64,000 bases of DNA, taken from NCBI GenBank assembly GCA_964016885.1, contig OZ024746.1, positions 5,270,001-5,334,000 of the forward strand, written 5' to 3'. The notes under the pieces are model-generated. The model searched no databases. It was not told where the DNA came from and saw only the letters and a list, made by a program, of their open reading frames with translations. Shown piece by piece: positions 4,828 to 64,000 of this stretch (position 1 is the first letter of the stretch; every line of letters begins with the position of its first letter). This stretch comes from Eledone cirrhosa (Eukaryota). The position numbers and the translations under genes were made by a program.

Positions 4828-4849
4828 AGGCAAAGCTAACCAATTTCTC

Positions 4850-5150
4850 CAGCCCCAGCCTGGTGCAGTCTGCGACTAACCCAGGTACTCCTGCACTTCG
4901 GGCTGAGGAGGCCAAACTCTCCAAATACCGGTCACTCTCCGATAGGTTTGCGGTCGTTACCTTGGCAGTGGAGACTTCTGGTGTCCTTGGCCCTAGGGCT
5001 ACCTCCCTACTCACCACCATAGGCGCTGAGCTAGCCAGCTGCAGGTGTGAGCCTCGCGAGTTGGAATGGCTCTTCCAGCGCATCTCCCTTACCATCCTCC
5101 GGGGAAACGCCTTCTCCATTCTGTCCGCCGGGGCTGTGGGGAGGCCAGCA
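4850..5150 (+). mobile_element. CRE-clade retrotransposon 3' fragment
   Basis: AEEAKLSKYRSLSDRFAVVTLAVETSGVLGP...[18 protein letters not shown]; homologous to 54685-54958. Confidence 0.88.
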
Positions 5151-12243: not shown

Positions 12244-12747
12244 GGAAGTACAGCATATTCGAAGCTCGAGCCGCAGCTAACCTGACGAATGCATTCAGAA
12301 GTGCAGCCAAGCACTTGATAAGGTATAAAACCTTAGAGTAATAACATACAGTTTAAAGGGCTTGGCAAATTGAAGATAGCGACCGGTAATTCAGCCGCGG
12401 GGGCCGTAGCAACGAAAGAAGTGACTCGCGAGAAAAAATGCATGCATATACATATATATATGTATATGTATTTATATATATATACGTATTGTATATTGAA
12501 TGATATGCGGGATGTTTCTGAAAAAACATTTGAGGGTCTTTCGCTATGAATGTCTAAGGTTGAAACCAACGCCACACACCTATCCTTTTGCTGATGTTAG
12601 ATGTGTGATGTAGGTTAAAACCTTAAAAATCACAGCGAAAGACACTGAAATGTTTTTCATAAACGCCCCATATAGTATTCAATATACCATACGTACATTT
12701 ATGTGGTATACCGCTATGCTGGAGCACCAATACAAATTATATATATA

Positions 12748-13666
<919 letters not shown>

Positions 13667-13672
<6 letters not shown>

Positions 13673-14240
13673 AATATATATTACCGAGAATCGCATTTCG
13701 GCTTTGAAATTAGCGAAAAATAACTTCCGAGATGTGTGGCAAGCGCTCAATAATTCTGACGAACCAGAGCTACAACATACGTTAAAGGCCAAACACACTG
13801 AGACGATGGTTAAACAATCATCCGCACAACCATAGAAACGACCAAGTAATTCGGGTCAAACAAATAAAAAAATATGTGATTGAAAAATTTACCCGGACCC
13901 CTGGATGGTTGGTAAAATCCAGTATTTGGGTTTCTGCGACTCCTAAATCAAGTACTGTCCGCTTAGACAAATAATGTTAGTCTTTTGGTAATATGATTGA
14001 ACAAGGAAGTCACTTTCTCAACAGGTTTTAGTTCAAGTGCCAGGCAAAGGAATGACCGTTACCGATACCCACGTGGGGCTCGACAAGGGAGGCAACCCTT
14101 ATTTTTGGCGGATGAAATTCAGTATGTGTATATTATTGCAAAAATGCAAAATATCACAAAAGGAATTAAGCTCTCAACAGAATGGTTATAAGTTAACAAA
14201 AGCTATTCATCAGTCAATAGAATCAACTAAAATAATCAAG
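13667..14240 (+). mobile_element. ~600-nt structured non-coding element, copy B (most diverged)
   Basis: Shared blocks atttcggc, ggcaagcgctc, acccggacc, cttttggta, tcaacaggt, ttttggc, ttcagtatgtgta, atcagtcaatagaat in the same order. Confidence 0.8.
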
Positions 14241-14251
14241 AATATATATAT

Positions 14252-14418
14252 ATTCTATTAGACTATTCTATTGACTGATAGAATATATATATATTCTATT
14301 AGACTATTCTATTGACTGATAGAATATATATATATATTCTATTAGACTATTCTATTGACTGATTAATTGCTTAAGTTTATTTAAAAACAACTCTGTCAAG
14401 AGCTTTAATTCGATTTGT
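14252..14418 (-). mobile_element. inverted, stuttered terminal fragments of the ~600-nt element
   Basis: tattctattagactattctattgactgat occurs three times, separated by short (TA)n; the last extends ~60 bp inward. Confidence 0.85.
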
Positions 14419-14577: not shown

Positions 14578-14659
<82 letters not shown>

Positions 14660-14661
<2 letters not shown>

Positions 14662-14885
14662 TACACAGGTGTGTAGGATTGTGTATAGAAGATTATTTTA
14701 ATAAAAGGAATTCCAACTTTGTCTGATTTACTCGTTTATTTACAATCCTTTAACAATATAATGATATTATAATGAAATAGAATGGTAGAATATTAAATGT
14801 TAAGTGTCAATTGAGCAAGTACTTTCATGCTTTCGCAATCTTCAGGTTCATATTCAGTGGTGACAGTCAAGTTTGCAATATTCAA
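14660..14885 (-). mobile_element. hammerhead family F3 element
   Basis: Near-identical to 42265-42487; TA-flanked. Confidence 0.8.
14813..14849 (-). ncRNA. minimal type I hammerhead ribozyme (F3)
   Basis: gaac-CTGAAGA-t-tgc-gaaa-gca-t-GAAAG-ta-CTT-gctc; one stem I mismatch. Confidence 0.65.
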
Positions 14886-15068
14886 ACGATATATATATAT
14901 ATATATATATGTTGATTTAAAACTGCACTATCCACAAGTGTTTTTTAGCCTTCATATCATGTTCTCCTGTTTTATCTGATGAAAACACAAATATTATTGC
15001 ATGATGATGTTTGTTTTTGAAATGCGCATAATAAAATATATGGAACTCCTTTAACCATCTTTTGATCT

Positions 15069-15169
<101 letters not shown>

Positions 15170-15182
15170 TTTTAATATAGAT

Positions 15183-15235
15183 GAGATTCTACAGGACTAC
15201 AACTGTTTCATTCTTTAGAAATCATCAGGAATCTC
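15183..15235 (-). ncRNA. type I hammerhead ribozyme (F1, minus arm)
   Basis: gagattc-CTGATGA-t-ttc-taaa-gaa-t-GAAACAG-ttgtagtc-CTGT-A-gaatctc; 7-bp stem I, 4-bp stem III, GUA triplet. Confidence 0.85.
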
Positions 15236-15236
15236 A

Positions 15237-15289
15237 GAGATTCCTGATGATTTCTAAAGAACGAAACAGTTCTAGTCCTGTAGAAACTC
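15237..15289 (+). ncRNA. type I hammerhead ribozyme (F1, plus arm)
   Basis: gagattc-CTGATGA-tttctaaagaac-GAAACAG-ttctagtc-CTGT-A-gaaactc. Confidence 0.8.
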
Positions 15290-15370
15290 ATCTATATTAA
15301 AACTTTTATACTCTGCTATGTATTGAGTACCTTACTTACTGTGGTTACCTCCGATTCAACCCGGAATAAC

Positions 15371-19287: not shown

Positions 19288-19291
<4 letters not shown>

Positions 19292-19489
19292 AAAATGTTC
19301 AAGACCCCGACGGCAGAGCTCAAGCCGTTTCGACGGCTATTTCCGGTTTCGGTCCAGAAATAGCCGTCGAAACGGCTTGAGCTCTGCCGTCGGGGTCCTG
19401 AACATTTTCCTATTACCCACTCTACTACCCAAAGTATTGAGTACTCTGGTGCGTTATGGTCCACCTGGTTCCTTACCACACTTCCTTCG

Positions 19490-19490
<1 letters not shown>
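19288..19490 (+). mobile_element. family F2 fold-back element (3' half of a hammerhead-like motif)
   Basis: ~55-bp arms; GAAAC-GGC-ttgagctct-GCCGT-C motif; ~80-nt tail; TA-flanked; homologues at 31292, 42023 and 52056. Confidence 0.85.
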
Positions 19491-19529
<39 letters not shown>

Positions 19530-19531
<2 letters not shown>

Positions 19532-19790
19532 AGTAGGAATATTTTCGAAACAGCGAGCGGGTCTGAAATGATTATAAATGTAAGCTATCGCCGTATTTTG
19601 ACTAAAGAAATTAAATAAATTATTTAGCCTGATAGTGGGGTTAAGAGCCCTCGGAGAAATGGAAAAAGATGAGTATTGACGTCAATACTCATCTTTTTCC
19701 ATTTCTCCGAGGGTTCTTAACCCCACTATCAGGCTAAATAATTTATTTAATTTCTTTAGTCAAAATACGGCGATAGCTTACATTTATAAT
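19530..19790. mobile_element. TA-flanked element with spacerless ~110-bp-arm palindrome
   Basis: Centre gac|gtc at 19680/19681; arms ~19572-19789 with one mismatch seen. Confidence 0.85.
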
Positions 19791-22171: not shown

Positions 22172-22440
22172 ATATAATAACTAGAAATTGATTAACATAT
22201 AAATAAACATGAATAATCACAGGAGATAATTTTTACAAGTGTGTAAGCACACATAGCTAGGTAGGTAACTAAATAAATGTTTATTTATATGTTAATCAAT
22301 TTCTAGTTATTATAAAATGCTCGGACCTATTCGTTAGAATCTTAGAGCTTATTTTGCGGGTGATATGGCGCATGTCTTTCTGGCATGACACCCATAATTT
22401 TGATTTAGATTAAATTCATTTTGATTTATCTTAATTTTGG
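22172..22440 (+). mobile_element. family F6 fold-back element
   Basis: Arms ~22174-22210 and ~22277-22312 plus tail; near-identical reverse copy at 40518-40745. Confidence 0.8.
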
Positions 22441-25103: not shown

Positions 25104-25654
25104 AATGGTAATAATAATAATGAGTATAATGATTATAATTATGAGAATAAAACCATAAAAGAAGAAGAAGAAAAAGAAAAGAAGCACAAAGGAAGAAGAA
25201 AGAAGAAGAAGAAGAAGAAGAAGAAGAAGAAGAAGAAGAAGAAGAAGAAGAAGAAGAAGAAGAAGAAGAAGAAGAAGAAGAAGAAGAAGAAGAAAACTAC
25301 AAACAAAAGTTTGGTAAAGTTGCGTGGAGCCAAATGAAAGAATGTAATGGTTACTATTGAAATTATTGGAATCTTGAAATAATTTATGGTCTTTAAAGCA
25401 GGAAGTATGATTGAGGGGAAACATGAAAATATTTGTAAACACTCCGAACATAAAACTTGATTAGGTTCTATCACTACACTGGTTTAAACAGCATAGCACA
25501 ATATTTAAAGACGGCCTCAATATTTCATCTAAATTACAGCTGGCCGTCATTTCACTGATCTTAACGTTATTAGTATATCTAGTCGACTCCTCTCTTATAT
25601 CTGTCGTCTGATATATGAAATATAAATCAATATTTTCTATATCTAACTCATTTG

Positions 25655-26382
25655 ACTACATACCACCAAAATATGACCACCACTACATACCACCAAAACA
25701 TGACCACCACTACATACCACCAACACATGACCACCACTACATACCACCAACACATGACCACCACTACATACCACCAAAACATGACCACCACTACATACCA
25801 CCAAAACATGACCACCACTACATACCACCAAAACATGACCACCACCACTACATACCACTAACACATGACCACCACTACATACCACCAAAATATGACCACC
25901 ACTACATACCACCAAAACATTACCACCACTACATACCACCAAAACATGACCACCACCACTACATACCACCAAAACATGACCACCACTACATACCACCAAA
26001 ACATGACCACCACTACATACCACCAAAACATGACCACCACTACATACCACCAAAACATGACCACCACTACATACCACCAAAACATGACCACCACTACATA
26101 CCACCAAAACATGACCACCACCACCACTACATACCACCAAAACATTACCACCACTACATACCACCAAAACATGACCACCACCACTACATACCACCAAAAC
26201 ATGACCACCACTACATACCACCAAAACATGACCACCACCACTACATACCACCAAAACATGACCACCACCACTACATACCACCAAAACATGACCACCACTA
26301 CATACCACCAAAACATTACCACCACCACCAACACATGACCACCACTACATACCACCAAAACATGACCACCACTACATACCAC
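25655..26382. repeat. 27-bp minisatellite (CACTACATACCACCAAAACATGACCAC), +/-3 variants
   Basis: About 26 copies; explains the YIPPKHDHH ORF. Confidence 0.95.
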
Positions 26383-27451
26383 TTTCTCTCGAATTAAAGT
26401 TGTCTGGAATTATGGCTGATGAATACAAACCAATAAAACTATCTAACATTCAGATACGTCATTTTCCATTCAAGTTCAAACCATTTGCTGTTCCATAGCA
26501 TCCACTACATTCTAAAATACACATATTCTCTCGTCTCGAATAATCGTCCTATCTTCGCCTAGTCATTCTTCAGAATTTTTCCACACCCCGCTTATTATAT
26601 CTTGCTAATCTATCTCCGGCGAAATTTTAGTGGTAGCATTCCTGCGACAATTAATTTTCTTTAGGCATTACAAACACTATACATGACCAAAAAAGTACAT
26701 ACATGAAATCCCATACGTTATAAAATAAATAGGATGGGTTGTGGTTTCAATATGTAAACGAAACAACTAATTCTGGTTTTTTTAAATCAACGGAAACAAT
26801 CTAGAAAAATTACTGATTTTCCACTCATCCTCTTATTCCACCCTTGCTTATTCCAACCCCCCGATTATTTGGGAGCCGGGTGTATACACTTGCACGTACA
26901 GACACACGTATATACATTCACAAATATATATTTATCGACCTATGCATAGAGACATCACACCTACACGTCTACAGAAAAGCAGAAAATATTTACTATATTC
27001 CTTAAATGTTACATGTTACTCATATCTCATGATTGTTATAGTTGATTCTCTTATTGAATTCTCTCTCTCTCTCTCCCTCTCCCCCTCACCTCCTCTCTCA
27101 CTCTATCTATCTCTCCCTCTTCTACCCCCCTCTCTCAGTACGAGGCATTAATGCCTTGTCGAAGAACACTAATAATATAGACATTGAAGTAGATAACCGG
27201 AACTGGAAATCGAAATTAGATAGTGTTTTCCTGTTTGCTATCAACTTCCACATAATATACAGTGCTGCCCGTTATATCTACACAAATATTGGCTAATTGA
27301 AGAAAGAAGCTTTAAACAATAGAAACTACAGAATTCTTTTTAGCTCCATCGACCAACTTTTCTTTACTAAAAACTTCAATAAATAACATTCTCTGCCAGG
27401 TTTTATGTAAAGAATCGGAATTTTCTAATTATTGTTTTATCCTCTTGGGTG

Positions 27452-28531: not shown

Positions 28532-28667
28532 AAAAAGAAACAAAGAAAGAGGCAAAGAGAATACCAATAATTTAGAAAGTGACAAACACAGAAAAGTGAA
28601 AGAAAATGAGTGAAAATGAAATAAAAGGAGAGACTAAGAATGAGAGAAAAGAAAGTGATAATTAGAA

Positions 28668-29163
28668 GCAGAGAAATGTGAGATGAAAGTGATGTGAGTG
28701 AAATGGGAGATGAAAGTGATGTGAGTGAAATGGGAGATGAAAGTGATGTGAGTGAAATGGGAGATGAAAGTGATGTGAGTGAAATGTGAGATGAAAGTGA
28801 TGTGAGTGAAATGGGAGATGAAAGTGATGTGAGTGAAATGGGAGATGAAAGTGATGTGAGTGAAATGGGAGATGAAAATGATGTGAGTGAAATGGGAGAT
28901 GAAAGTGATGTGAGTGAAATGTGAGATGAAAGTGATGTGAGTGAAATGGGAGATGAAAGTGATGTGAGTGAAATGGGAGATGAAAGTGATGTGAGTGAAA
29001 TGGGAGATGAAAGTGATGTGAGTGAAATGGGAGATGAAAGTGATGTGAGTGAAATGGGACATGAAAGTGATGTGAGTGAAATGGGAGATGAAAGTGATGT
29101 GAGTGAAATGGGAGATGAAAGTGATGTGAGTGAAATGGGAGATGAAAGTGATGTGAGTGAAAT
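28668..29163. repeat. 27-bp minisatellite (GAAATGGGAGATGAAAGTGATGTGAGT)
   Basis: About 18 near-identical copies. Confidence 0.95.
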
Positions 29164-29481
29164 GAAAAACGTGAAAAAAAAAGTGCATTAACTGAAGGTG
29201 AACGATAAAAGGGGGCGGGTATATACTGTAAGATAGAATAACTTATATTAAAACAGAAACAGAACCCATACAATTCTAAATGTTTTTGGACAAATTCCTC
29301 CAAGAAATCCCGGATAAACCTCCTACACCCGGATATATCTCCGTAAACAATAACTCTCACCTTGAGTAGACTATGGTGTCCTAATCTTGATTTGAGAGAC
29401 TTCGCAGGTGGTGCTGTTAGGATAGACATGACCTTTGCCAATACTGGCCGAAACCTATCAAAGTTATCAAAGTAATAGATG

Positions 29482-30410
<929 letters not shown>

Positions 30411-31291: not shown

Positions 31292-31588
31292 ACCAGGTGG
31301 ACTATAATGCACCAGAGTACTCGATACTTAGGGTAGATATAGATATATAAAAAGTACATGATAAAATGACAAGTCAGTCAATCATATTGGTGGCCTCCCC
31401 ACAGCCCGGGCGGACAGGATGGAGAAGGCGTTTCCCCGGGGGACGGCAAGGGAGACGCGCTGGAAAAGCGTTTCCAGCTCACGAGGCTCACGCCTCGGCT
31501 GGCCAGCTCAGCGCCTGTGGTGGTGAGTAGAAGAGTCAGGACCTCGACGGCTGAGCTCCGGCCCTTTCGACAGCTAGACTCGAACCAT
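31292..31588 (-). mobile_element. family F2 element interrupted by a CRE 3' fragment
   Basis: F2 tail 31292-31336, CRE 3' end/UTR ~31365-31530, F2 resumes at ~31530 (aagagtcaggacctcgacggctgagctc). Confidence 0.8.
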
Positions 31589-31701: not shown

Positions 31702-32004
<303 letters not shown>

Positions 32005-40043: not shown

Positions 40044-40084
<41 letters not shown>

Positions 40085-40418
40085 ATGGCTGCCCCCTCGT
40101 TATTGAGTATGGCCATTGCACGATATACCATTATTAATAATTATTAATTCTATCGTGCAATGCCTGTGCGTGAAGATATTTTTTAAAGTGAGGAAAGACT
40201 GTGCACTGAGCCAATCCCACTCGCTGAGCGACAGTAGCTATAACCCGAAAAGAAGAATAGATCAACATCATCGGAAACTACTGAGCCGCAGGTTTTATAT
40301 CGGAGTTATCCCAGTTTCCTGAGTTGTCTTCTCCTAGAAGAATGACCTGACAAAGGCTAGGGGTCCTTCACCCCCAGTGGTTTAACCGCGCGATCTGGTG
40401 TCCAGCCCGACTATTTCT

Positions 40419-41032
<614 letters not shown>

Positions 41033-41269: not shown

Positions 41270-41307
41270 CGAGCTGAGGATCCGCTAAGGTGAAACAATT
41301 GTTCTCG
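41270..41307 (+). ncRNA. minimal type I hammerhead ribozyme (F4)
   Basis: cgag-CTGAGGA-t-cc-gctaa-gg-t-GAAAC-aatt-GTT-ctcg; palindromic AATT loop; homologue at 55150-55210. Confidence 0.8.
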
Positions 41308-41339
41308 GTATGGTGAACTAACTGTTGTGTAACAACTTC

Positions 41340-41433
<94 letters not shown>

Positions 41434-42023: not shown

Positions 42024-42205
42024 CGGAGGAAATGTGGTAAGGAACCAGGTGGACCATAACGCACCAAAGTACTCAATACTTAGGGTAGTAGAGTGGGTAA
42101 TAGGAACGAGTAGGATCCCGACGGCTGAGCTCAAGCCGTTTCAACGGCTAATCCAGAATTAGCCGTCGAAACGGCTTGAACTCAGCCGTCGGGGTCCTAC
42201 TCGTT

Positions 42206-42210
<5 letters not shown>
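42023..42210 (-). mobile_element. family F2 fold-back element
   Basis: Palindrome 42100-42210 plus tail; TA-flanked. Confidence 0.85.
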
Positions 42211-42263
<53 letters not shown>

Positions 42264-42420
42264 AATATACACGGGTGTGTATGATTGTGTATAGAAGATT
42301 ATATTAATAAAAGGAATTCCAACTTTGTCTGATTTACTCGTTTTATTTACAATCCTTTAAAATTTATAATGGTATTAGAATGAAATAGTATGGTAGAATA
42401 TTAAATGTTAAGTGTTAATT

Positions 42421-42457
42421 GAACAAGTACTTTCATGCTTTCGCAATCTTCAGGTTC
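42421..42457 (-). ncRNA. minimal type I hammerhead ribozyme (F3)
   Basis: gaac-CTGAAGA-t-tgc-gaaa-gca-t-GAAAG-ta-CTT-gttc; stem I perfect; AGTACT palindrome. Confidence 0.75.
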
Positions 42458-42643
42458 ACATTGTGTGGTGACAGTCAAGTTTGCAATTTTCGACTGTTGA
42501 ATTTTGTACTCTTTGAAATTTTATACTGTTTGAAAATTGCAATTTTCAACTGTTGACTTTTATACTGTTTGAAAATTGCAATTTTCAACTGTTGAATTTT
42601 ATACTGTTTGAAAATTGCAAACTTGACTGTCACCACACAATGT

Positions 42644-42680
42644 GAACCTGAAGATTGCGAAAGCATGAAAGTACTTGCTC
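42644..42680 (+). ncRNA. minimal type I hammerhead ribozyme (F3, inverted arm)
   Basis: Mirror copy of 42421-42457 with one stem I mismatch. Confidence 0.65.
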
Positions 42681-42793
42681 AATTAACACTTAACATTTAA
42701 TATTCTACCATACTATTTCATTCTAATACCATTATAAATTTTAAAGGATTGTAAATAAAACGAGTAAATCAGACAAAGTTGGAATTCCTCTTA

Positions 42794-42831
<38 letters not shown>

Positions 42832-45200: not shown

Positions 45201-45835
45201 TTCAGAGACTGTGTTTGTTATTTTGAATAATCTTGGGCGATTCCTTTGCTGTTCAGAACTCTGTAACTGCTGCATTGATTCATCTTATATTTTTACCTAG
45301 TTCTTGATGGAATCGTTTTTGCTTGGAGTCTTTGTTTGTTCAAAGGAGAATCGTTGTCGCTTTGCATACCAACGGATTCTTTGTAATTTTGTTGAGGATC
45401 TCTTGCTTCGGGCATTCTTCGATTTTAGGCATTTCGTTTACTTGTTATATTATATTTTTGTAGTATTTGTCCCTCATTCTTTTTCCACATTCGTCTTGTT
45501 TTGTTATTAATTATATTAAGAATTCAGGTATGTTTTTGTTTATCTATCTCTTACTATATTTTCCTACACGTTGTTTGTTGTGTTTCAAATTCCTATATGT
45601 GTAAATATGAAGGAGACTTCCCTTTCCATCCTAACTACAATGACTTTCCTATTTATTTCCTTTGACTTGTTTACACTGATTTACATGTTCGTTTTCATGG
45701 CGTTCGTTATTGTTGTTGCTGTTTTATCAATAACTTTTCTTGGGTGCTACTTTCGTTAACCCATAGGAACATTTATTATATCTTTCTCATTTTTCAATAT
45801 ATTTCTATTTTTGTTTGTATTAGTCTGGTTCTGCT

Positions 45836-46216
45836 TTTGTTGGTCAATATTTTGTAGGTGTTCGGCTTTCGTTGGTCAATGTTTTGTAGGTGGTCGGCTT
45901 TTGTTGGTCAATGTTTTGTAGGTGTTCGGCTTTCGTTGGTCAATGTTTTGTAGGTGTTTGGTTTTGTTGGTCAATATTTTGAAGGTGTTCAGCTTTCGTT
46001 GGTCAATATTTTGTAGGTGTTCGGCTTTTGTTGGTCAATATTTTGTAGGTGTTCGGCTTTTGTTGGTCAATGTTTTGTAGGTGTTCGGCTTTTGTTGGTC
46101 AATATTTTGTAGGTGTTCGGTTTTTGTTGGTCAATGTTTTGTAGCTGTTCGGCTTTTGTTGGTCAATGTTTTGTAGGTGTTCGGCTTTTGTTGGTCAATA
46201 TTTTGTAGCTGTTTGG
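45836..46216. repeat. 32-bp minisatellite
   Basis: Unit ttttgttggtcaatattttgtaggtgttcggc, about 12 copies. Confidence 0.95.
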
Positions 46217-46826
46217 TTTTGTTACTAAACTCACCGTTTTTAACCTTCGTTACATTCATAAGTATATATTTTTATTGTTTGTCTTCTTCTTCTTCTTCTT
46301 CTTCTTCTTCTTCTTCTTCTTCTTCTTCTTCTTCTTCTTCTTCTTCTTCTTCTTCTTCTTCTTCTTCTTCTAGAGAAGACGAATATCCTCACCGCATTGA
46401 TTTTTATTCCCACTGTGCAGCACTCGGCAGCAAACCTATTAAGTGAACGCTGGAGATCATATTCTGACGTTTTAAGTAAACCATCTCATCCGCAAATTCC
46501 AACCTAATAATGCAATTTCTTGATATATCCCTGGGGTTATCACTATGGCTAATAGTTTCGTCTTACTTCCAACAGAGAATGTATATCATATAAGTCGTGT
46601 CAATATATTCGGATGACAAACAGTAAATCCCATCACATCTTAGTTTCACTTCTATGTTACTTATTAATTCAATACCAATTTCCAATATACGCTATCTATT
46701 TATCTATTTTTTTGGATAATTTCTCCATTTCTTTCAGAACATATGGAAGACATCTGTTCTGATAATCTTTGAAAATATCTATTCCGTTTTCTAAGTCTTC
46801 CTGGGTAAATTTGCTATGTTCTAGAA

Positions 46827-50501: not shown

Positions 50502-50607
50502 AAGTTATTCCGGGTTCAATCGGGGGTAACCACAGTAAGGTACTCAATACATAGCAGAGTATAAATGTTTTAATATAGAAAAGCTTCTACAGGACTAGAA
50601 CTGTTTC
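50502..50607 (-). mobile_element. family F1 3' fragment
   Basis: Runs from GAAACAG through the tail; homologous to 15263-15372. Confidence 0.8.
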
Positions 50608-52056: not shown

Positions 52057-52254
52057 CGAAGGAAGTGTGGTAAGGAACCAGGCGGACCAAACGCACCAGA
52101 GTACTCGATACTTTGGGTAGTCGAGTGGGTAATAGAAAAGGAGTCAGGACCCCGATGGCAGAGCTCAAACAGTTTCGACAGCTATTTCTTGGTCTAGAAA
52201 TAGTTGTCGAAACGGCTTGAGCTCTGCCGTCGGGGTTCTGACTCTTTTCCTATA
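52056..52254 (-). mobile_element. family F2 fold-back element
   Basis: Palindrome 52132-52254 plus tail; TA-flanked. Confidence 0.85.
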
Positions 52255-52261
52255 TATATAT

Positions 52262-52550
52262 CAAAGGTATATATTGAGTTAGGAACTCAAAATAGTCTCT
52301 TACAACAAAATAGCTCCAAGAAAGAGATATTTCCGAGCCGTATATTATAATTGAATATAAAAGAAAAACGAACACAGCTATATACACATATGAGTTTGTA
52401 TTTATTTTCTTGATTTTTTCTTAAATTGAGACAAGCAAACCCAATTGTCTATAGTTAGTATTCTTTTCACTTTAGCGAATCTGGTCCCTTACGATTTGAA
52501 CTCATATATGTAAATATCTGTGTTCGTTTTTCTTTTATATTCAATTATAT
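52262..52550 (-). mobile_element. family F7 fold-back element
   Basis: Arms ~52344-52397 and ~52498-52549; tail shares gctcgga...tcttRgagc(t)tattttg with F6. Confidence 0.65.
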
Positions 52551-52574
52551 ATATATATATATATATATATTTTT

Positions 52575-52900
52575 AGACAACTCAATCAGAGAAACAATTG
52601 TTAGACTGTAAATAAACCCCTTTTTTGTACTGTTGACCATGACATTCTTCACTTTTTCAATTTTATTACTCCAAGATAAACTTACATAGGAATACAAGTG
52701 AAATCATAAACTCGCCATCTACGTAAACCTCTTGTTGAGTCAAACAAAGCCGTACGCTAAAACTATCCACATATACCCACACCTATCAACCTCCAAAACC
52801 AGCAAAATGGTTTCGCACGATCCAACCGCTACATATGATCTTTTCAAAAAGGATAAACTTCACATGGTAAGCAGACAGCTGCTTACCACGTGGCACATAC
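52575..52900 (+). mobile_element. PLE-related tail sequence
   Basis: 52663-52770 is homologous to the reverse complement of 29688-29791. Confidence 0.6.
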
Positions 52901-52904
52901 ATTA

Positions 52905-54960
52905 CCCCCCCCCCCTCTTCGCTGAGGCCGGGCGCCGCCTTCTGAGTGCAATTGTGGCCCTCACCAATAGGCTCATCCATGGCACCCTGGACCCTCACGA
53001 CCGAGGCCTCTTTTTTTCGGCTAGTCTCACCGCTCTCAGGAAGAAAGAGGGTGGCATACGCCCCATCGCTGTGGGCAATGTCTTCTGGAGGCTGGCTGCC
53101 AAGGTGGTCTGCAGGTCCATAACACCCGCACTGGGTGAGGAGTTCAGTCTGGTGCAACTGGGTGTCGGGGTGTTCGGTGGATGTGAGGGGCCGCACATGC
53201 AACCAGGCAGTTCTTCAATAGCTATCCACTGGAACCGGCATCCAGGGACTCCAGGCATCTCATTGTCAAGCTTGACATGAGGAATGCCTTCAACTGCTTG
53301 CGCCGAGACCATTTGCTCGATGTCTGCCTCAGCCGAGCCCCCTCTGCCTACCCGCTGGCCTACCTGTCGTATGGAGCCCCGAGCATGCTCCTTGCTGCTG
53401 ATACGGCCATAACTTCGGCTACTGGGGTCCAACAGGCCGACCCTTTGTGACCCCTCCTGTTTGCCCTTGGTACAGACCACATCACCCGGAGTATCACGGC
53501 CCCTCTCAACGTTTGGTATCTGGATGATGCTACTTTGGGCGGGCCCGTACAGACTGTCTGCCACGACCTACAATCGGTGGTTCCTGCCCTGGCGGGAATC
53601 GGCCTCCAGTTCAACTCGGCAAAGTCGGAGGTGGTGAATGTCAGCCACGATGCTCAGAGCTTTGCATCCTCCGTCTCGGACGTGGGGGTCCATTCTCCAC
53701 CAGGTACAGGTGATCCCCAAAGAGGATGTCCTCATCCTCGGGTCACCGATCCACAATCAGATCCAGGCTTCAACAACTCCAGACTCTCACGAGCCGACTG
53801 GGTGACCGACGGCCACCCAGCTCTCTTCCTGTTGAGGAACTGCTTCGCCATGCCGAAGCTCCTCTATACCGCTCGCAGCGCTCCGTGCTACACCCACACA
53901 TCTCTCCTCGCTGACCTCGATACTTGGATCCGAGCAACGTCAAGGTTGACGACATTGGATGGCAACAGGCCACTTTACCTGTCAGGTATGGCGGCCTTGG
54001 CCTCCGGTCCCTGACTCGCTGGCTTTGCCGGCGTATCATTCGTCGGTAACCTCGAACCGCGTCCTCGTCAGCAGGGTTCTTCAAAACACAATAGAACACT
54101 CTGTGTTCAGAGAACGTGAGGCTGCCTGTGAGACGTGGGACTGGCTGGGACTTATCCCAGTAGACGTCCCTCCTCCTTCTCCCTCTGTTGACGCCAAGTC
54201 CCCCCAAAGTACTTGGGATGCGATCCAGTGCAGCCTGGCCTCAGACTGGCTCACGCACCAGCTCTACCTGCACTGCCTTGCCTGCTTTCGTGCGGCCTCC
54301 AAACCCCACAGTGGTGCCTGGCTCCATGCCCTGCCCTCTTTGTCCACTGGCACGCAGCTAGACAACAATAGCCTGTGCATCGGCGTATCATTGAGGCTTG
54401 GCCTCCGGATCTGCGATCCACACCAATGTCGCTGCGGATCCACCGTGGACGCTTTCGGCCTCCACCCGCTTTCCTGTCGCCACAGTGCCGGCCGCCTTCC
54501 ACGCTATGCTGCCCTCAACGAGGTCATAAAGCATGGCTTGGACGCTGCGGGCTTCGCTTCCCAGCTCGAGCCGGTGGGGCTGGACCGAGGAGACTGCAAA
54601 AGGCCAGATGGCATGACCATCTTCCCGTTCCACGGTGGAAAACCCCTCGTCTGGGATGCTACTGCACCGACACTTTCTGCAGCCGCAACCTGGTGCAGTC
54701 TGCGACTAACCCAGGTTCTGCTGCACGTCGGGCTGAGGAGGCCAAACTCCTCAAATAGCGGTCGCTCTCCGACAGGTTTGCGGTGGTACTCCTGGCAGTG
54801 GAGACTTCTGGTGTCCTCGGCCCCAAGGCTACCTCCCTACTCACCACCATAGGTGCTTAACTGGCTAGCTGCAGGTGTTAACCCCGCGAGTTGGAATGGC
54901 TTTTCCAGCGCGTCTCCCTTGCCGTCCTCCTCGGGAACGCCTTCTCCATCCTGTCCGTCG
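52905..54960 (+). mobile_element. CRE-clade non-LTR retrotransposon (RT + Zn knuckle + restriction-like endonuclease), truncated pseudogene
   Basis: GGIRPIAVG..RLAAK; QLGVG..GGCE; VKLDMRNAFN; GVQQADPL*PLLF; WYLDD; SGAWLHALP; C.CG..VD..GLH.LSC; KRPDG.T; LVWDAT. Several frameshifts and stops; GC-rich. Confidence 0.92.
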
Positions 54961-55001
54961 CGTAACATTCCATATTTAGGTATCCGAAACACAAAACTTT
55001 A

Positions 55002-55061: not shown

Positions 55062-55242
55062 ACACTGGAAGGTAAAATCCGTAGTGGTAGAGCACTCAGT
55101 CCATAGGACGAGTTAAGTAGAAGTGGTAACACAACAGTTAGTTCACCATACCGAGAAGAATTGTTTCACCTTAGCGGATCTCCAGCTCAAGGCGAAACAA
55201 TTGTTTCTCGGTATGGTGAACTAACTGTTGTGTTATCACTTG
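55061..55242 (-). mobile_element. hammerhead family F4 fold-back element
   Basis: Arms ~55121-55172 and ~55189-55241; minus strand gag-CTGGAGA-tccgctaaggt-GAAAC-aatt-ctt-ctcgg is a mutated copy of 41270-41307. Confidence 0.8.
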
Positions 55243-55594: not shown

Positions 55595-56330
55595 CAAATA
55601 TAAATTCAGCGAGAATCGTATTTCGGCGGGTAGAAATAAGCGAAACGCAATTTCCGAGTTATGCTGGCAAGCGCTCCATGGGCCAAAAGAGACCAGAGCA
55701 ATAAACATAGGTTATAAGAGCCATACAAACTGAGACGGGGGTTAAGAGGCTATCAACCATCTAAGCCCCCCCCCCCCCCAAAAAAAAAAAAAACGAGGCA
55801 AGCTAAACCGGTCAAACAAAATAAATGAAATATTCACCCGGACCAATCGAAATGATGATATAATCCAGTAGAGGGTGTCTGCGACACCTAAATCCCTAAT
55901 ACCGTCTGCTTAAAATAATAAGCTTTTGGTATAATGATCGAACAAGGCTGTCACTTTCTCAACAGGTATTTTGTTCTGCGCCAGCGTACAGAGTCACGCA
56001 GTGTTTTGTAGTAGTGAAAGCACGTGCGTAACTCTACAGGGGAGAAAACCCCGGATTTTGGCAAATGAATTCAGTATGTGTAAATCAATGCGAAAATTGC
56101 AAAACAGCACAAATCGAATTAAGCTTTCGACCGGGTAGTTTTAAAAATAAACTTAAGCAATTAATCAGTCAATAGAATCATCTAAAAAAAATTAACTGGC
56201 TAATTGTTAAACTCGGGAGATTAATACAAATATAAATTCAGCGAGAATCGTATTTCGGCGGGTAGAAATAAGCGAAACGCAATTTTCGCGTTATGCTGGC
56301 AAGCGCTCTATGGACCAAAAGAGACCAGAG
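55592..56330 (+). mobile_element. ~630-nt structured element, copy C with head-to-tail partial repeat
   Basis: Unit restarts at ~56224 (period 632 bp) for ~105 bp; TA-flanked. Confidence 0.85.
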
Positions 56331-56365
56331 CTATATATATAGAGAGAGAGAGCAATATATATATA

Positions 56366-58868: not shown

Positions 58869-59218
58869 GTGTTGTAGTAGGGGTAGTAGTAGGTGTAGTA
58901 GTAGTAGTAGTAGTAGTAGTAGGTGTAGTAGTAGTTGTTGTAGTAGTAGTAGTAGGTGTAGTAGTAGTAGTAGTAGTAGTAGGTGTAGTAGTAGGTGTAG
59001 TAGTAGTAGTTGTAGTAGTAGTAGTAGTAGTAGGTGTAGTAGTAGTAATTGCAGTAGTAGTATAGTCGTAGTAGTAGTATAGTAGTAGTAGTAGTAATAG
59101 AAGTAGTAGTAGTAGTAATATTGGGAGTAGTAGTAACAGTAGTAGTATAGTAGTAGTAGTTTTAGTAGTAGCATCAGCAGCAGCAGTAATAGTAGTAGTA
59201 GTAGCAGTCAGTAGCAGT

Positions 59219-59250
<32 letters not shown>

Positions 59251-59590
59251 CAGCAGCAACAGTAGTAGCAGCAGCAACAGTAGTAGCAGAGCAGCAGTAG
59301 TAGCAGCAATAATAGTAGCATCAGCAGCAGCAGTATTAGTAGTAGTTGTAGCAGCCGCAGCAGTAGCAGCAGCAGCAATAGTAGTAGCAACAACAGTAGT
59401 AGTAGCAGTAGTAGTAGTAGTAATAGTAGTAGTAGCAACAACAGCAGTAATAGTAGTTGTAGTAGTAGCAGTAGCAACAGTAGTAGCAGCAGTAATAGTT
59501 GCATCAGCAGCAGCAGCAGCAGTATTAGTAGTAGTAGCAGCCACAACAGCAGTAGTAGTAGTTGTAGTAATAACAGCAAGAGCAGCAACA
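58560..59590. repeat. (GTA)/(GCA)-based degenerate triplet tract
   Basis: Direct inspection. Confidence 0.9.
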
Positions 59591-62500
59591 GTAGTTGCAG
59601 TAGCATACTGCAGTAGAGACAGCAGTAGCAACAACAGCAGTAGTAGTAGTTGTAGTAATAGCAGCAACAGCAGCAGCAGTAGTTGCAGTAGCATACTGCA
59701 GTAGAGACAGCAGTAGCAACAACAGCAGTAGTAGTTGTTGTAGTAATAGCAGCAACAGCAGCAGTAATAGTTGCAGTAGCATACTGCAGTAGAGACAGCA
59801 GTAGCAACAACAGCAGTAGTAGTAGTTGTTGTTGTAATAGCAGCAACAGCAGCAACAGTAGTTGCAGTAGCATACTGCAGTAGAGACAGCAGTAGCAACA
59901 ACAGCAGTAGTAGTTGTTGTAGTAATAGCAGCAACAGCAGCAGTAATAGTTGCAGTAGCATACTGCAGTAGAGACAGCAGTAGCAACAACAGCAGTAGTA
60001 GTAGTTGTTGTTGTAATAGCAGCAACAGCAGCAACAGTAGTTGCAGTAGCATACTGCAGTAGAGACAGCAGTAGCAACAACAACAGCAGTAGCAGTAGTT
60101 GTAGTAATAGCAGAAACAGCAGCAACAGTAGTTGCAGTAGTATACTGCAATAGAGATAGCAGCAACAACAGCAGTAGCAGTAGTTGTAGTAATAGCAGCA
60201 ACAGCAGCAACAGTAGTTGCAGTAGCATACTGCAGTAGAGACAGCAGCAGCAACAACAGCAGTAGTAGTAGTAGTTGTTGTTGTAATAGCAGCAACAGCA
60301 GCAGTAGTAGTAGTTGTTGTTGTAATAGCAGCAACAGCAGCAACAGTAGTTGCAGTAGCATACTGCAGTAGAGAGAGCAGCAGCAACAACAGCAGTAGTA
60401 GTAGTAGTTGTTGTTGTAATAGCAGCAACAGCAGCAGTAGTAGTAGTTGTTGTAGTAACAGCAGCAACAACAGCAACAGTGGTTGCAGTAGCATACCGCA
60501 GTAGAGACAGCAGTAGCAACAACAGCAGTAGTAGTAGTAGTTGTTGTTGTAATAGCAGCAACAGCAGCAACAGTAGTTGCAGTAGCATACTGCAGTAGAG
60601 ACAGCAGTAGCAACAACAGCAGTAGTAGTAGTAGTTGTAGTAACAGCAGCATCAGCAGCAACAGTGGTTGCAGTAGTATACTGCAGTAGAGACAGCAGCA
60701 ACAACAACAGCAGTAGTAGTAGTTGTAGTAATAGCAGAAACAGCAGCAACAGTGGTTGCAGTAGCATACCGCAGTAGAGACAGCAGCAGCAACAACAACA
60801 GCAGTAGTAGTAGTTGTAGTAACAGCAGCAACAGTAGTTGCAGTAGTATACTGCAATAGAGATAGCAGCAACAACAACAGCAGTAGTAGTAGTTGTAGTA
60901 ATAGCAGAAACAGCAGCAACAGTGGTTGCAGTAGCATACCGCAGTAGAGACAGCAGTAGCAACAACAGCAGTAGTAGTAGCAGTTGTAGTAACAGCAGCA
61001 ACAGCAGCAGCAGTGGTTGCAGTAGCAAACTGCAGTAGAGACAGCAGCAACAACAACAGCAGTAGTAGTTGTTGTAGTAATAGCAGAAGCAGCAGCAACA
61101 GTAGTTGCAGTAGTATACTGCAGTAGAGACAGCAGTAGCAACAACAACAGCAGTAGTAGTAGTAGTTGTAGTAATAGCAGCAACAGCAGCAACAGTAGTT
61201 GCAGTAGTATACTGCAGTAGAGACAGCAGTAGCAACAACAGCAGTAGTAGTAGTAGTTGTAGTAATAGCAGCAACAGCAGCAGCAGTAGTTGCAGTAGCA
61301 TACTGCAGTAGAGACAGCAGTAGCAACAACAGCAGTAGTAGTAGTAGTTGTAGTAATAGCAGCAACAGCAGCAGCAGTAGTTGCAGTAGCATACTGCAGT
61401 AGAGACAGCAGTAGCAACAACAGCAGTAGTAGTAGTAGTTGTAGTAATAGCAGCAACAGCAGCAACAGTAGTTGCAGTAGCATACTGCAGTAGAGACAGC
61501 AGTAGCAACAACAGCAGTAGTAGTTGTTGTAGTAATAGCAGCAACAGCAGCAGCAGTAGTTGCAGTAGCATACTGCAGTAGAGACAGCAGTAGCAACAAC
61601 AGCAGTAGTAGTAGTAGTTGTTGTAATAGCAGCAACAGCAGCAGCAGTAGTTGCAGTAGCATACTGCAGTAGAGACAGCAGTAGCAACAACAGCACTAGT
61701 AGTAGTAGTTGTTGTAATAGCAGCAACAGCAGCAGCAGTAGTTGCAGTAGCATACTGCAGTAGAGACAGCAGTAGCAACAACAGCAGTAGTAGTAGTAGT
61801 TGTAGTAATAGCAGCAACATCAGCAGTAATAGTTGCAGTAGCATACTGCAGTAGAGACAGCAGTAGCAACAACAGCAGTAGTAGTAGTTGTTGTTGTAAT
61901 AGCAGCAACAGCAGCAACAGTAGTTGCAGTAGCATACTGCAGTAGAGACAGCAGTAGCAACAACAGCAGTAGTAGTAGTTGTTGTTGTAATAGCAGCAAC
62001 AGCAGCAGCAGTAGTTGCAGTAGCATACTGCAGTAGAGACAGCAGTAGCAACAACAGCAGTAGTAATAGTTGTAGTAATAGCAGCAACAGCAGCAACAGT
62101 AGTTGCAGTAGCATACTGCAGTAGAGACAGCAGTAGCAACAACAGCAGTAGTAGTTGTTGTAGTAATAGCAGCAACAGCAGCAGCAGTAGTTGCAGTAGC
62201 ATACTGCAGTAGAGACAGCAGTAGCAACAACAGCAGTAGTAGTAGTAGTTGTTGTAATAGCAGCAACAGCAGCAGCAGTAGTTGCAGTAGCATACTGCAG
62301 TAGAGACAGCAGTAGCAACAACAGCAGTAGTAGTAGTAGTTGTAGTAATAGCAGCAACAGCAGCAGTAATAGTTGCAGTAGCATACTGCAGTAGAGACAG
62401 CAGTAGCAACAACAGCAGTAGTAGTAGTTGTTGTTCTAATAGCAGCAACAGCTGCAACAGTAGTTGCAGTAGCATACTGCAGTAGAGACAGCAGTAGCAA

Positions 62501-64000
62501 CAACAGCAGTAGTAGTAGTTGTTGTTGTAATAGCAGCAACAGCAGCAGCAGTAGTTGCAGTAGCATACTGCAGTAGAGACAGCAGTAGCAACAACAGCAG
62601 TAGTAATAGTTGTAGTAATAGCAGCAACAGCAGCAACAGTAGTTGTAGTAGCATACTGCAGTAGAGACAGCAGTAGCAACAACAGCAGTAGTAGTTGTTG
62701 TAGTAATAGCAGCAACAGCAGCAGTAATAGTTGCAGTAGCATACTGCAGTAGAGACACCAGTAGCAACAACAACAGTAGTAGCAGTAGTTGTAGTAATAG
62801 CAGCAACAGCAGCAGTAGTAGTTGCAGTAGTAGTTGCAGTAGCATACTGCAGTAGAGACAGCAGTAGCAACAACAGCAGTAGTAGTAGTAGTTGTTGTTG
62901 TAATAGCAGCAAGAGCAGCAGTAGTAGTAGTTGTTGTTGTAATAGCAGCAACAGCAGCAACAGTAGTTGCAGTAGCATACCGCAGTAGAGACAGCAGCAG
63001 CAACAACAACAGCAGTAGTAGTAGTTGTAGTAACAGCAGCAACAGCAGCAACAGTAGTTGCAGTAGCATACTGCAGTAGAGACAGCAGTAGCAACAACAG
63101 CAGTAGTAGTAGTAGTTGTAGTAATAGCAGCAACAGCAGCAGTAATAGTTGCAGTAGCATACTGCAGTAGAGACAGCAGTAGCAACAACAGCAGTAGTAG
63201 TAGTTGTAGTAATAGCAGCAACAGCAGCAGTAGTAGTTGCAGTAGCATACTGCAGTAGAGACAGCAGTAGCAACAACAGCAGTAGTAGTAGTTGTTGTAA
63301 TAGCAGCAACAGCAGCAACAGTAGTTGCAGTAGCATACTGCAGTAGAGACAGCAGTAGCAACAACAGCAGTAGTAGTTGTTGTAGTAATAGCAGCAACAG
63401 CAGCAGTAATAGTTCCAGTAGCATACTGCAGTAGAGACAGCAGTAGCAACAACAGCAGTAGTAGTTGTTGTTGTAATAGCAGCAACAGCAGCAGTAGTAG
63501 TTGCAGTAGCATACTGTAGTAGAGACAGCAGTAGCAACAACAACAGCAGCAACAGTAGTTGCAGTAGCATACTGCAGTAGAGACACCAGTAGCAACAACA
63601 ACAGCAGTAGGAGTAGTTGTAGTAATAGCAGCAACAGCAGCAGTAGTAGTTGCAGTAGCATACCGCAGTAGAGACAGCAGTAGCAACAACAGCAGTAGTA
63701 GTAGTAGTTGTTGTTGTAATAGCAGCAAGAGCAGCAGTAGTAGTAGTTGTTGTTGTAATAGCAGTAAGAGCAGCAGTAGTAGTAGTTGTTGTTGTAATAG
63801 CAGCAACAGCAGCAACAGTAGTTGCAGTAGCATACTGCAGTAGAGACAGCAGCAGCAACAACAACAGCAGTAGTAGTAGTTGTAGTAACAGCAGCAACAG
63901 CAACAGCAGTAGTTGCAGTAGCATACTGCAGTAGAGACAGCAGTAGCAACAACAGCAGTAGTAGTTGTAGTAATAGCAGCAACAACAGCAGTAGTAGTAG
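59590..64000. repeat. ~88-91-bp minisatellite with hairpin core, runs off the window
   Basis: Core gttgcagtagcatactgcagtagagacagcag; measured periods 88, 88 and 91 bp for the first units. Confidence 0.95.

Follow-up and report, generated by a model that had tools for sequence, protein, structure and literature searches.

A short bulged hairpin located just 3' of element ends appears to be the cis-signal that sets the start of reverse transcription in Hydra-clade Penelope-like elements (PLEs), a reading to which we assign a probability of about 0.62 and for which we infer both protein binding and priming at this site. Judged from sequence comparison, the hairpin is a real, conserved cis-element of this clade, with full elements carrying two copies (referred to here as M1 and M2).

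The hairpin was originally predicted in a 64-kb stretch of microsatellite-rich animal DNA (hereafter, the window) as an ACTC/GAGT helix with a variable inner stem and a 3' bulge, present in the tails of otherwise unalignable repeat families. The five main sites of this prediction, at 15310-15328 (+), 19419-19442 (+), 55094-55113 (-), 29718-29786 (-), and 52668-52740 (+), were exact, and three further window families absent from it (F5, F6, and F7) carry a G-C closed form. The carrier families of the window, copy by copy, are as follows.

15310..15331 (+): M1 hairpin of F1 (ACTC to GAGT at 15310-15328), A-U closed, with a UU bulge and a 3' AC; E 0.26 with the non-window model.
15168..15370 (+): F1 foldback insertion in (TA)n, with the inverted short arm at 15168-15235, the direct arm at 15237-15304, and the tail at 15305-15370.
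15237..15290 (+): type I hammerhead-like motif in the F1 arm, by core pattern and helices on inspection, with GAAAC 42 nt before M1; in Rfam, a weak Hammerhead_3 match (E 0.6) under the gathering score.
31854..31872 (-): M1 of the second F1 copy; pattern and model match.
50542..50560 (-): M1 of the third F1 copy; pattern and model match.
19419..19442 (+): M1 of F2 in the foldback at 19290-19490, the top model match (E 5e-4); this copy has a hammerhead 3' half with GAAAC 45 nt upstream of M1.
42071..42094 (-): M1 in the F2 foldback at 42024-42207; pattern and model match.
52103..52126 (-): M1 with a mutated first inner pair in the F2 foldback at 52057-52253; model match, the pair being restored by the consensus letter (read-mapping run X1).
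55094..55113 (-): M1 variant of F4 with a one-base bulge, in the foldback at 55064-55241, with GAAAC 49 nt upstream; missed by the model.
41274..41341 (+): tail-less F4 copy that stops 4 nt short of the M1 position and shows the complete minimal hammerhead pattern; no Rfam hammerhead match.
30174..30410 (-): Hydra-clade GIY-YIG endonuclease remnant comprising the last 79 aa and containing CxxC and CxH; tblastn E 5e-11 against full-length Hydra-type proteins.
29718..29786 (-): long-loop M1 in the 3' repeat of the Hydra endonuclease remnant, with the element end at ~29630 in TA; missed by the covariance model because the loop is too long.
52668..52740 (+): long-loop M1 of a related high-copy family (52574-52776); depth stops at 52776, and the listed variants lie in the loop.
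22319..22348 (+): G-C closed M1 of F5 in the foldback at 22173-22440, 4 nt past the short-arm end.
40609..40638 (-): G-C closed M1 of the second F5 foldback (40518-41031).
52313..52338 (-): G-C closed M1 of F6 in the foldback at 52262-52545.
12832..12859 (-): G-C closed motif of F7 in a 600-bp TA-flanked repeat with no hammerhead recognised; model E 0.03.
13745..13770 (-): F7 motif, second copy; model match.
55673..55699 (-): F7 motif, third copy; model match.
56305..56331 (-): F7 motif at the very start of the tail-only copy 56226-56331; model E 0.012.

The insertions of F1, F2, and F4 into (TA)n have a head-to-head arrangement in which one arm is short and the other runs on into the tail. 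The window copies adjoin TA runs, with one F4 end adjoining a TC run, and only one copy (30174-30410) retains coding sequence. No hammerhead was recognised in F5, F6, F7, or the remnant at 29.6-30.4 kb. The motif-distal end of F7 also occurs as short exact pieces on both strands that share the same last base before TA (13264-13341, 13544-13605, and 14254-14415). The motif is missing from four other foldback families of the window, which may be members of other clades. TA-flanked foldbacks without the motif lie at 19531-19790, at 42264-42796 together with 14658-14887, at 574-795, and at 12485-12693, and two of these show a one-sided extension of ~40 nt, as known for other PLE clades.

Within the window, the position of the motif is the strong part of the evidence and its count the weak part. 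The ACTC/GAGT-closed pattern has 8 matches compared to 1.43 +- 1.27 in 200 dinucleotide shuffles (maximum 6; inner part up to 70 nt), and 6 compared to 0.35 when the inner part is limited to 20 nt. This count alone is weak evidence, because the 8 matches are copies of only 4-5 independent families and other outer 4-mers give similar counts (e.g., 7 for CAGT). A relaxed pattern is found in 8 window families, with 3.2 +- 1.7 starts expected by chance. As for position, the motif starts no more than 12 nt past the inverted-arm end in 5 of the 9 listed foldback families, for a chance of 3.5e-4 per end.

The predicted fold itself is inconspicuous. Folding energies of the window tails gave z values of -1.8 to +0.5 in seven of eight cases and -3.3 in the other, indicating a thermodynamically weak hairpin that predicted energy alone does not single out, and the inner part (stem plus loop) ranges from 6 to 63 nt across motif copies. 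None of the 150 listed Rfam matches in the window reached the gathering score, and no Rfam family fits the motif; matches to miRNAs were ascribed to long palindromes, and readings of the hairpin as Twister, HDV, or SECIS elements did not fit by eye. In the read-mapping run, the variants listed for F2, for F6, and for the 52668 family changed the second bulge base or the loops, or kept the first inner pair, and none of the 40 listed out of 52 fell in the closing helix. M2 was not visible for any window family, and none of the 7 loose ends seen out of 377 in this run continued into a second hairpin.

Two 'shorter forms' in the original prediction, at 827-840 and ~40095, proved to be a single, longer hairpin that belongs to a separate repeat family and lies at its non-tail end; it lacks the bulge-plus-stem form and was not found by the covariance model. 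The copies of this family, at 810-1135 and 40080-40420, have a separate block in common, a stable 5' hairpin (z -5.1 at 810-860), and a CATA-repeat end. Elsewhere in the window, a frameshifted non-LTR retrotransposon at 52850-54980 (+), which may be CRE-like, shows the pattern of a reverse transcriptase (RT) and a C-terminal restriction-like endonuclease, with nothing found for it in Pfam, and 3' fragments of it lie at 1886-2178, 4841-5150, and 31366-31530. Minisatellite arrays with units of ~27, 27, 32, and 88-91 nt occupy 25640-26400, 28660-29200, 45828-46223, and 58990-64000, respectively, and account for long spurious ORFs.

The group that bears the motif is, on the protein signatures of its relatives, the Hydra clade of PLEs. 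The 79-aa endonuclease fragment has 307 relatives at E<=0.001, and the full-length ones carry the diagnostics of this clade (RWK in 50/54, DKT in 53/54, CxCx5C in 52/54, and both CxxC and CxH in 54/54). The RWK, DKT, and CxCx5C linker motifs were present in all 11 full ORFs of related loci and are missing from the window through truncation. Families F1, F2, and F4-F7 were assigned to the clade by motif, position, and target, the window PLE copies being devoid of RT sequence; we propose that they represent short products, 5'-truncated or dependent on a helper, whose tails display hairpin 1. Pfam returned nothing for the window protein fragments, a word-indexed protein search returned no match for the 79-aa fragment, and viral contigs contained no relative. 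The Neptune clade, with a CCHH endonuclease and a CX2-5CxxC linker, was rejected, as the relatives show the Hydra linker and C terminus instead. A non-LTR retrozyme was likewise rejected: the definition given in the portion available of bioRxiv 10.64898/2026.07.22.740005 calls for tandem repeats with a type I hammerhead in each, and the window copies are dispersed and head-to-head.

The form of the hairpin was established in 101 loci (306 kb in all), comprising the 80 best of 523 metagenome matches and 21 from genome contigs. Selection of these loci relied on a single endonuclease motif, a few host groups contributed most of them, and they are related to one another, so the locus counts below are not independent and the pair figures are not probabilities. 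Some of them (L081-L101) are animal Hydra elements in contigs filed as bacterial MAGs or symbiont genomes, i.e., host contamination. A hammerhead pattern was found 3' of the ORF in 79 of 98 scanned loci, and the motif follows the hammerhead in 29 of 45 sequence families, many of the others ending in TA just before the place of the motif. In general, the hairpin consists of GCTC, 6-21 nt of stem-loop, a two-base bulge, and GAGC followed by RCT, summarized as GCTC-(stem)-TN-GAGC-RC, and the bulge in 56 distinct cases reads TT (38), TC (9), or TA (9). The 12 nt upstream are strongly A/T-rich, and the base after GCTC is a paired T or C in 54 of the 56 cases. Pattern counts gave 58 M1, 17 M2, and 16 other matches, and full-length elements have the order hammerhead pattern, M1, 57-83 nt, M2, and an ATG 5-42 nt after M2 (14 distinct M2). 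In predicted folds, M1 and M2 can cross-pair.

These loci also show how the helix varies. The closing helix had been described as constant, whereas ACTC/GAGT is only the minority form of a wider RCTC/GAGY; since the loci of other animals read GCTC/GAGC, the window form is a compensatory variant. Both sides of the helix are changed in five window families, with A-U for G-C at the first pair, and in L088, with A-U for U-A at the third. When sequences were anchored on the 3' side only, GCTC was found upstream in 39 of 40, and inner pairs were kept in 39/39, 36/37, 30/33, and 19/29, the first three exceeding all 2000 shuffles (means 31, 21, and 19; maxima 35, 29, and 25). The predicted covariation of the inner stem is thus upheld by its first three pairs, and wobble pairs in this set are G-U (6) rather than A-C (0). 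The pair counts rest on this 3'-anchored test, as the count on alignment A4 is circular for the first inner pair, paired sequences having been selected for it.

The covariance model was derived from 47 instances outside the window. When it was run on the window, family copies made up 11 of the top 12 matches (four of F2, three of F1, and four of the newly added F7), with E values mostly modest, from 5e-4 to 1.2, but F4, F5, F6, and both long-loop copies were missed. By eye, among the six published Hydra consensi in File S7 of PMC8557442, three have the canonical motif (Hydra-2_Amil, Hydra-1_Ajap, and Hydra-2_Ajap), Hydra-1_Crog has only a degenerate copy, Hydra-1_Amil was not scorable, and Hydra-1_Obim has no canonical copy at the expected place of M1, which is evidence against universality. 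In Hydra-1_Ajap of that file, two copies precede the AUG and the consensus begins 2 nt before the first of them. For the Naiad and Chlamys consensi from the same source, no motif stood at the termini in the passages covered, which included all 22 GAGCACT places.

The hairpins are closely tied to where elements end. Among tail-less copies, 24 of 28 distinct ends lie 1-8 nt before M1, where 22% of comparable AT-rich sites are found; of the remaining four, one falls at -13, another within M1 where the sequence inverts, and two are tailed copies whose M1 is mutated. These 28 were scored from 91 hammerhead matches without M1, after setting aside 58 without a family reference, 3 cut by contig ends, and 2 duplicates. 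Among tailed copies, 14 had an M1-M2 reference, in some cases from a sister subfamily, and 3 of these were cut by contig ends; 9 of the 11 untruncated copies end 2-7 nt before M2, and two end at -15 and -27. The rule can be seen within single contigs in L072 (two families) and L088, the latter with a tailed end at -4 from M2 within one locus. For F1, F2, F4, F5, and F6 of the window, BLAST places the short-arm ends 4-11 nt before the motif, the distance being 4-7 nt when TA shared with the host repeat is counted. As both classes of end track M1 or M2, an element end sits immediately 5' of each hairpin and the 'tail' is the interval that separates the two hairpins, its length matching the M1-M2 spacing where M2 is visible. 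We consider this link between hairpin and end very probable, whatever the chemistry. The distance to the 3' end varies, from ~30 to 110 nt in the window; what is fixed is a place 1-8 nt downstream of the tail-less end.

Copies that consist only of tail or leader (56226-56331, L055, and L062) begin within a TA run, at the hairpin or immediately ahead of it, which suggests that the site preceding M1 serves as a target or stop point in its own right. Tail-to-tail inversions in L071 (1085-1389) and L081 (1840-2091) have their turning point at hairpin 1 or within it, as would result from fold-back of cDNA or RNA.

We propose that the element's protein would bind the bulged helix on the sense RNA, that its endonuclease would nick the (TA)n target, and that the nicked end would anneal to UA-rich RNA immediately upstream of the hairpin, where copying would begin. 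The hairpin in use would then stay uncopied, because copying starts 5' of it: a start at hairpin 1 would yield a tail-less end, and a start at hairpin 2 would copy hairpin 1 as a 'tail'. Of the roles in the original prediction, that of a cross-family cis-signal of a PLE group is supported by independent loci, covariation, and the link to ends, probable recognition by RT is the best reading, and 3' processing found no support. Evidence that counts against a start signal comes from Hydra-1_Obim and the degenerate copy in Hydra-1_Crog, from the thermodynamic weakness of the hairpins, from the outlier ends (tailed at -15 and -27, tail-less at -13), from the lack of a visible M2 in the window, from the families missed by the covariance model, and from the four foldback families devoid of the motif.

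More tentatively, a single RNA with two identical hairpins might load two protein copies, each priming on one nicked (TA)n strand, one beside each hairpin. The head-to-head pairs fit this possibility, with 14 (7 from loci and 7 from the window) combining one tail-less and one tailed arm, and two symmetric ones (both arms short in L094 and both long in L085) found by eye in the remainder of a screen that favours mixed pairs and from which two rows, L087 4360-5983 and one of L091, were left out as chance. If correct, a single event would produce a head-to-head insert with a tail on exactly one side, and the hairpin would be a portable, non-copied start signal for a telomerase-related RT that targets a microsatellite.

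The same end rule is predicted if the hairpin acts in DNA, single-stranded or as a cruciform, by guiding the GIY-YIG endonuclease to cut the TA-rich site just upstream during resolution of an intermediate or cutting of a donor copy. Craig et al. (PMC8557442), in the part of the text available, ascribed the tail to endonuclease-mediated resolution, and, as cited in PMC11167929, recognition by the D. virilis endonuclease depended on the tail. G-T pairs form in DNA too, and the tail-only copies mentioned above begin at or near the hairpin. We nevertheless regard this as unlikely, given that an inner part of 6 to 63 nt makes duplex recognition improbable, that the 6 to 0 excess of wobble pairs favours the sense strand and so argues against a folded first-strand cDNA, and that genomic ends coincide with reverse-transcription starts in the only PLE tested, according to the portion available of PMC11167929.

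Less probable still is some other RNA role in the 5' leader, such as packaging, translation control, or mimicry of a tRNA D-arm for a host factor, with ends arising through UA-rich annealing to (TA)n. The short distance from M2 to the AUG (5-42 nt), the A/T-rich upstream sequence, and the cross-pairing of M1 and M2 in predicted folds would all suit such a role, but comparable AT-rich sites elsewhere, expected to receive 78% of ends, take few, and the end rule holds at both hairpin copies and in ORF-less families. As for D-arm mimicry, the motif pattern does match the D-arm of a tRNA-like sequence in L017; however, the motif has T or C after GCTC in 54/56 rather than the A of tRNA. A true tRNA D-arm or Pol III A-box was rejected because this base is T or C and paired, and no tRNA match was found at M1 or M2 in L001, L072, or L088. 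The tRNA-like sequence in L017, at 1704-1781, matches Rfam tRNA with 35 bits, and the likeness of the Hydra hairpin to its D-arm may be chance or mimicry. That the motif has no function, and reflects repeat ancestry in common plus chance matches in AT-rich DNA, is very improbable: the modest window count after collapsing to families (8 vs 3.2 +- 1.7) and the unremarkable folding energies would be expected, but a near-invariant helix and bulge among families with unalignable flanks, together with the covariation of stems, the presence of two copies in each element, and the end rule, largely refute it.

In stringent LINEs and their SINEs, and in the R2 3' UTR, RNA structure near the start of copying recruits the element's protein, and these signals are copied into every insert. 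Under our proposal, the Hydra hairpin would differ in occurring twice and in that the one in use, located 3' of the start, does not pass into the insert. As such, it would be a minimal cis-signal for a telomerase-related enzyme, and it offers a marker for classing the many ORF-less foldback repeats in (TA)n-rich animal genomes.

The carriers share with the Hydra clade of Craig et al. 2021 (PMC8557442), as far as the available text describes it, the C-terminal GIY-YIG domain with CxxC/CxH, the RWK, DKT, and CxCx5C motifs, a hammerhead-like pattern in terminal repeats, and the (TA)n target; the Hydra section of that paper covers protein motifs, hammerheads, and target, and the hairpin, its duplication, and the link to ends are not described there. 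Head-to-head arms with an extension on one side only are likewise shared with the PLE tail and inverted 5'-truncated copy in the available parts of PMC3846280 and Craig et al. 2021, with the difference that the tails here are ~50-155 nt rather than 30-40 and have a conserved structure at their beginning. The existence of tails, of foldbacks, and of two start sites was thus already known, whereas the motif and the end rule were not found in the accessible portions of the PLE literature, with Repbase reports, Arkhipova 2006, and Pyatkov 2004 outside its scope.

The closest parallel is Poseidon_Ac (Frangieh et al. 2024; PMC11167929), for which, in the text available, in vitro measurements placed two internal start sites at the boundaries of the tail. 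As proposed here, the spacing of two starts equals the tail, the target is AT-rich, both strands are extended, and a dimer is predicted. Poseidon_Ac belongs to another clade, its RNA in Fig. S1 of that paper lacks the motif by eye, priming needed no homology, and no sequence rule was given there for the two sites. On the choice of start, the one-sided tail, and the inverted arms of PLEs, this one in vitro study, as available, provided two starts and no rule, and a short hairpin, repeated twice, that predicts both ends within a few bases now allows defined mutants and a testable explanation of the tail.
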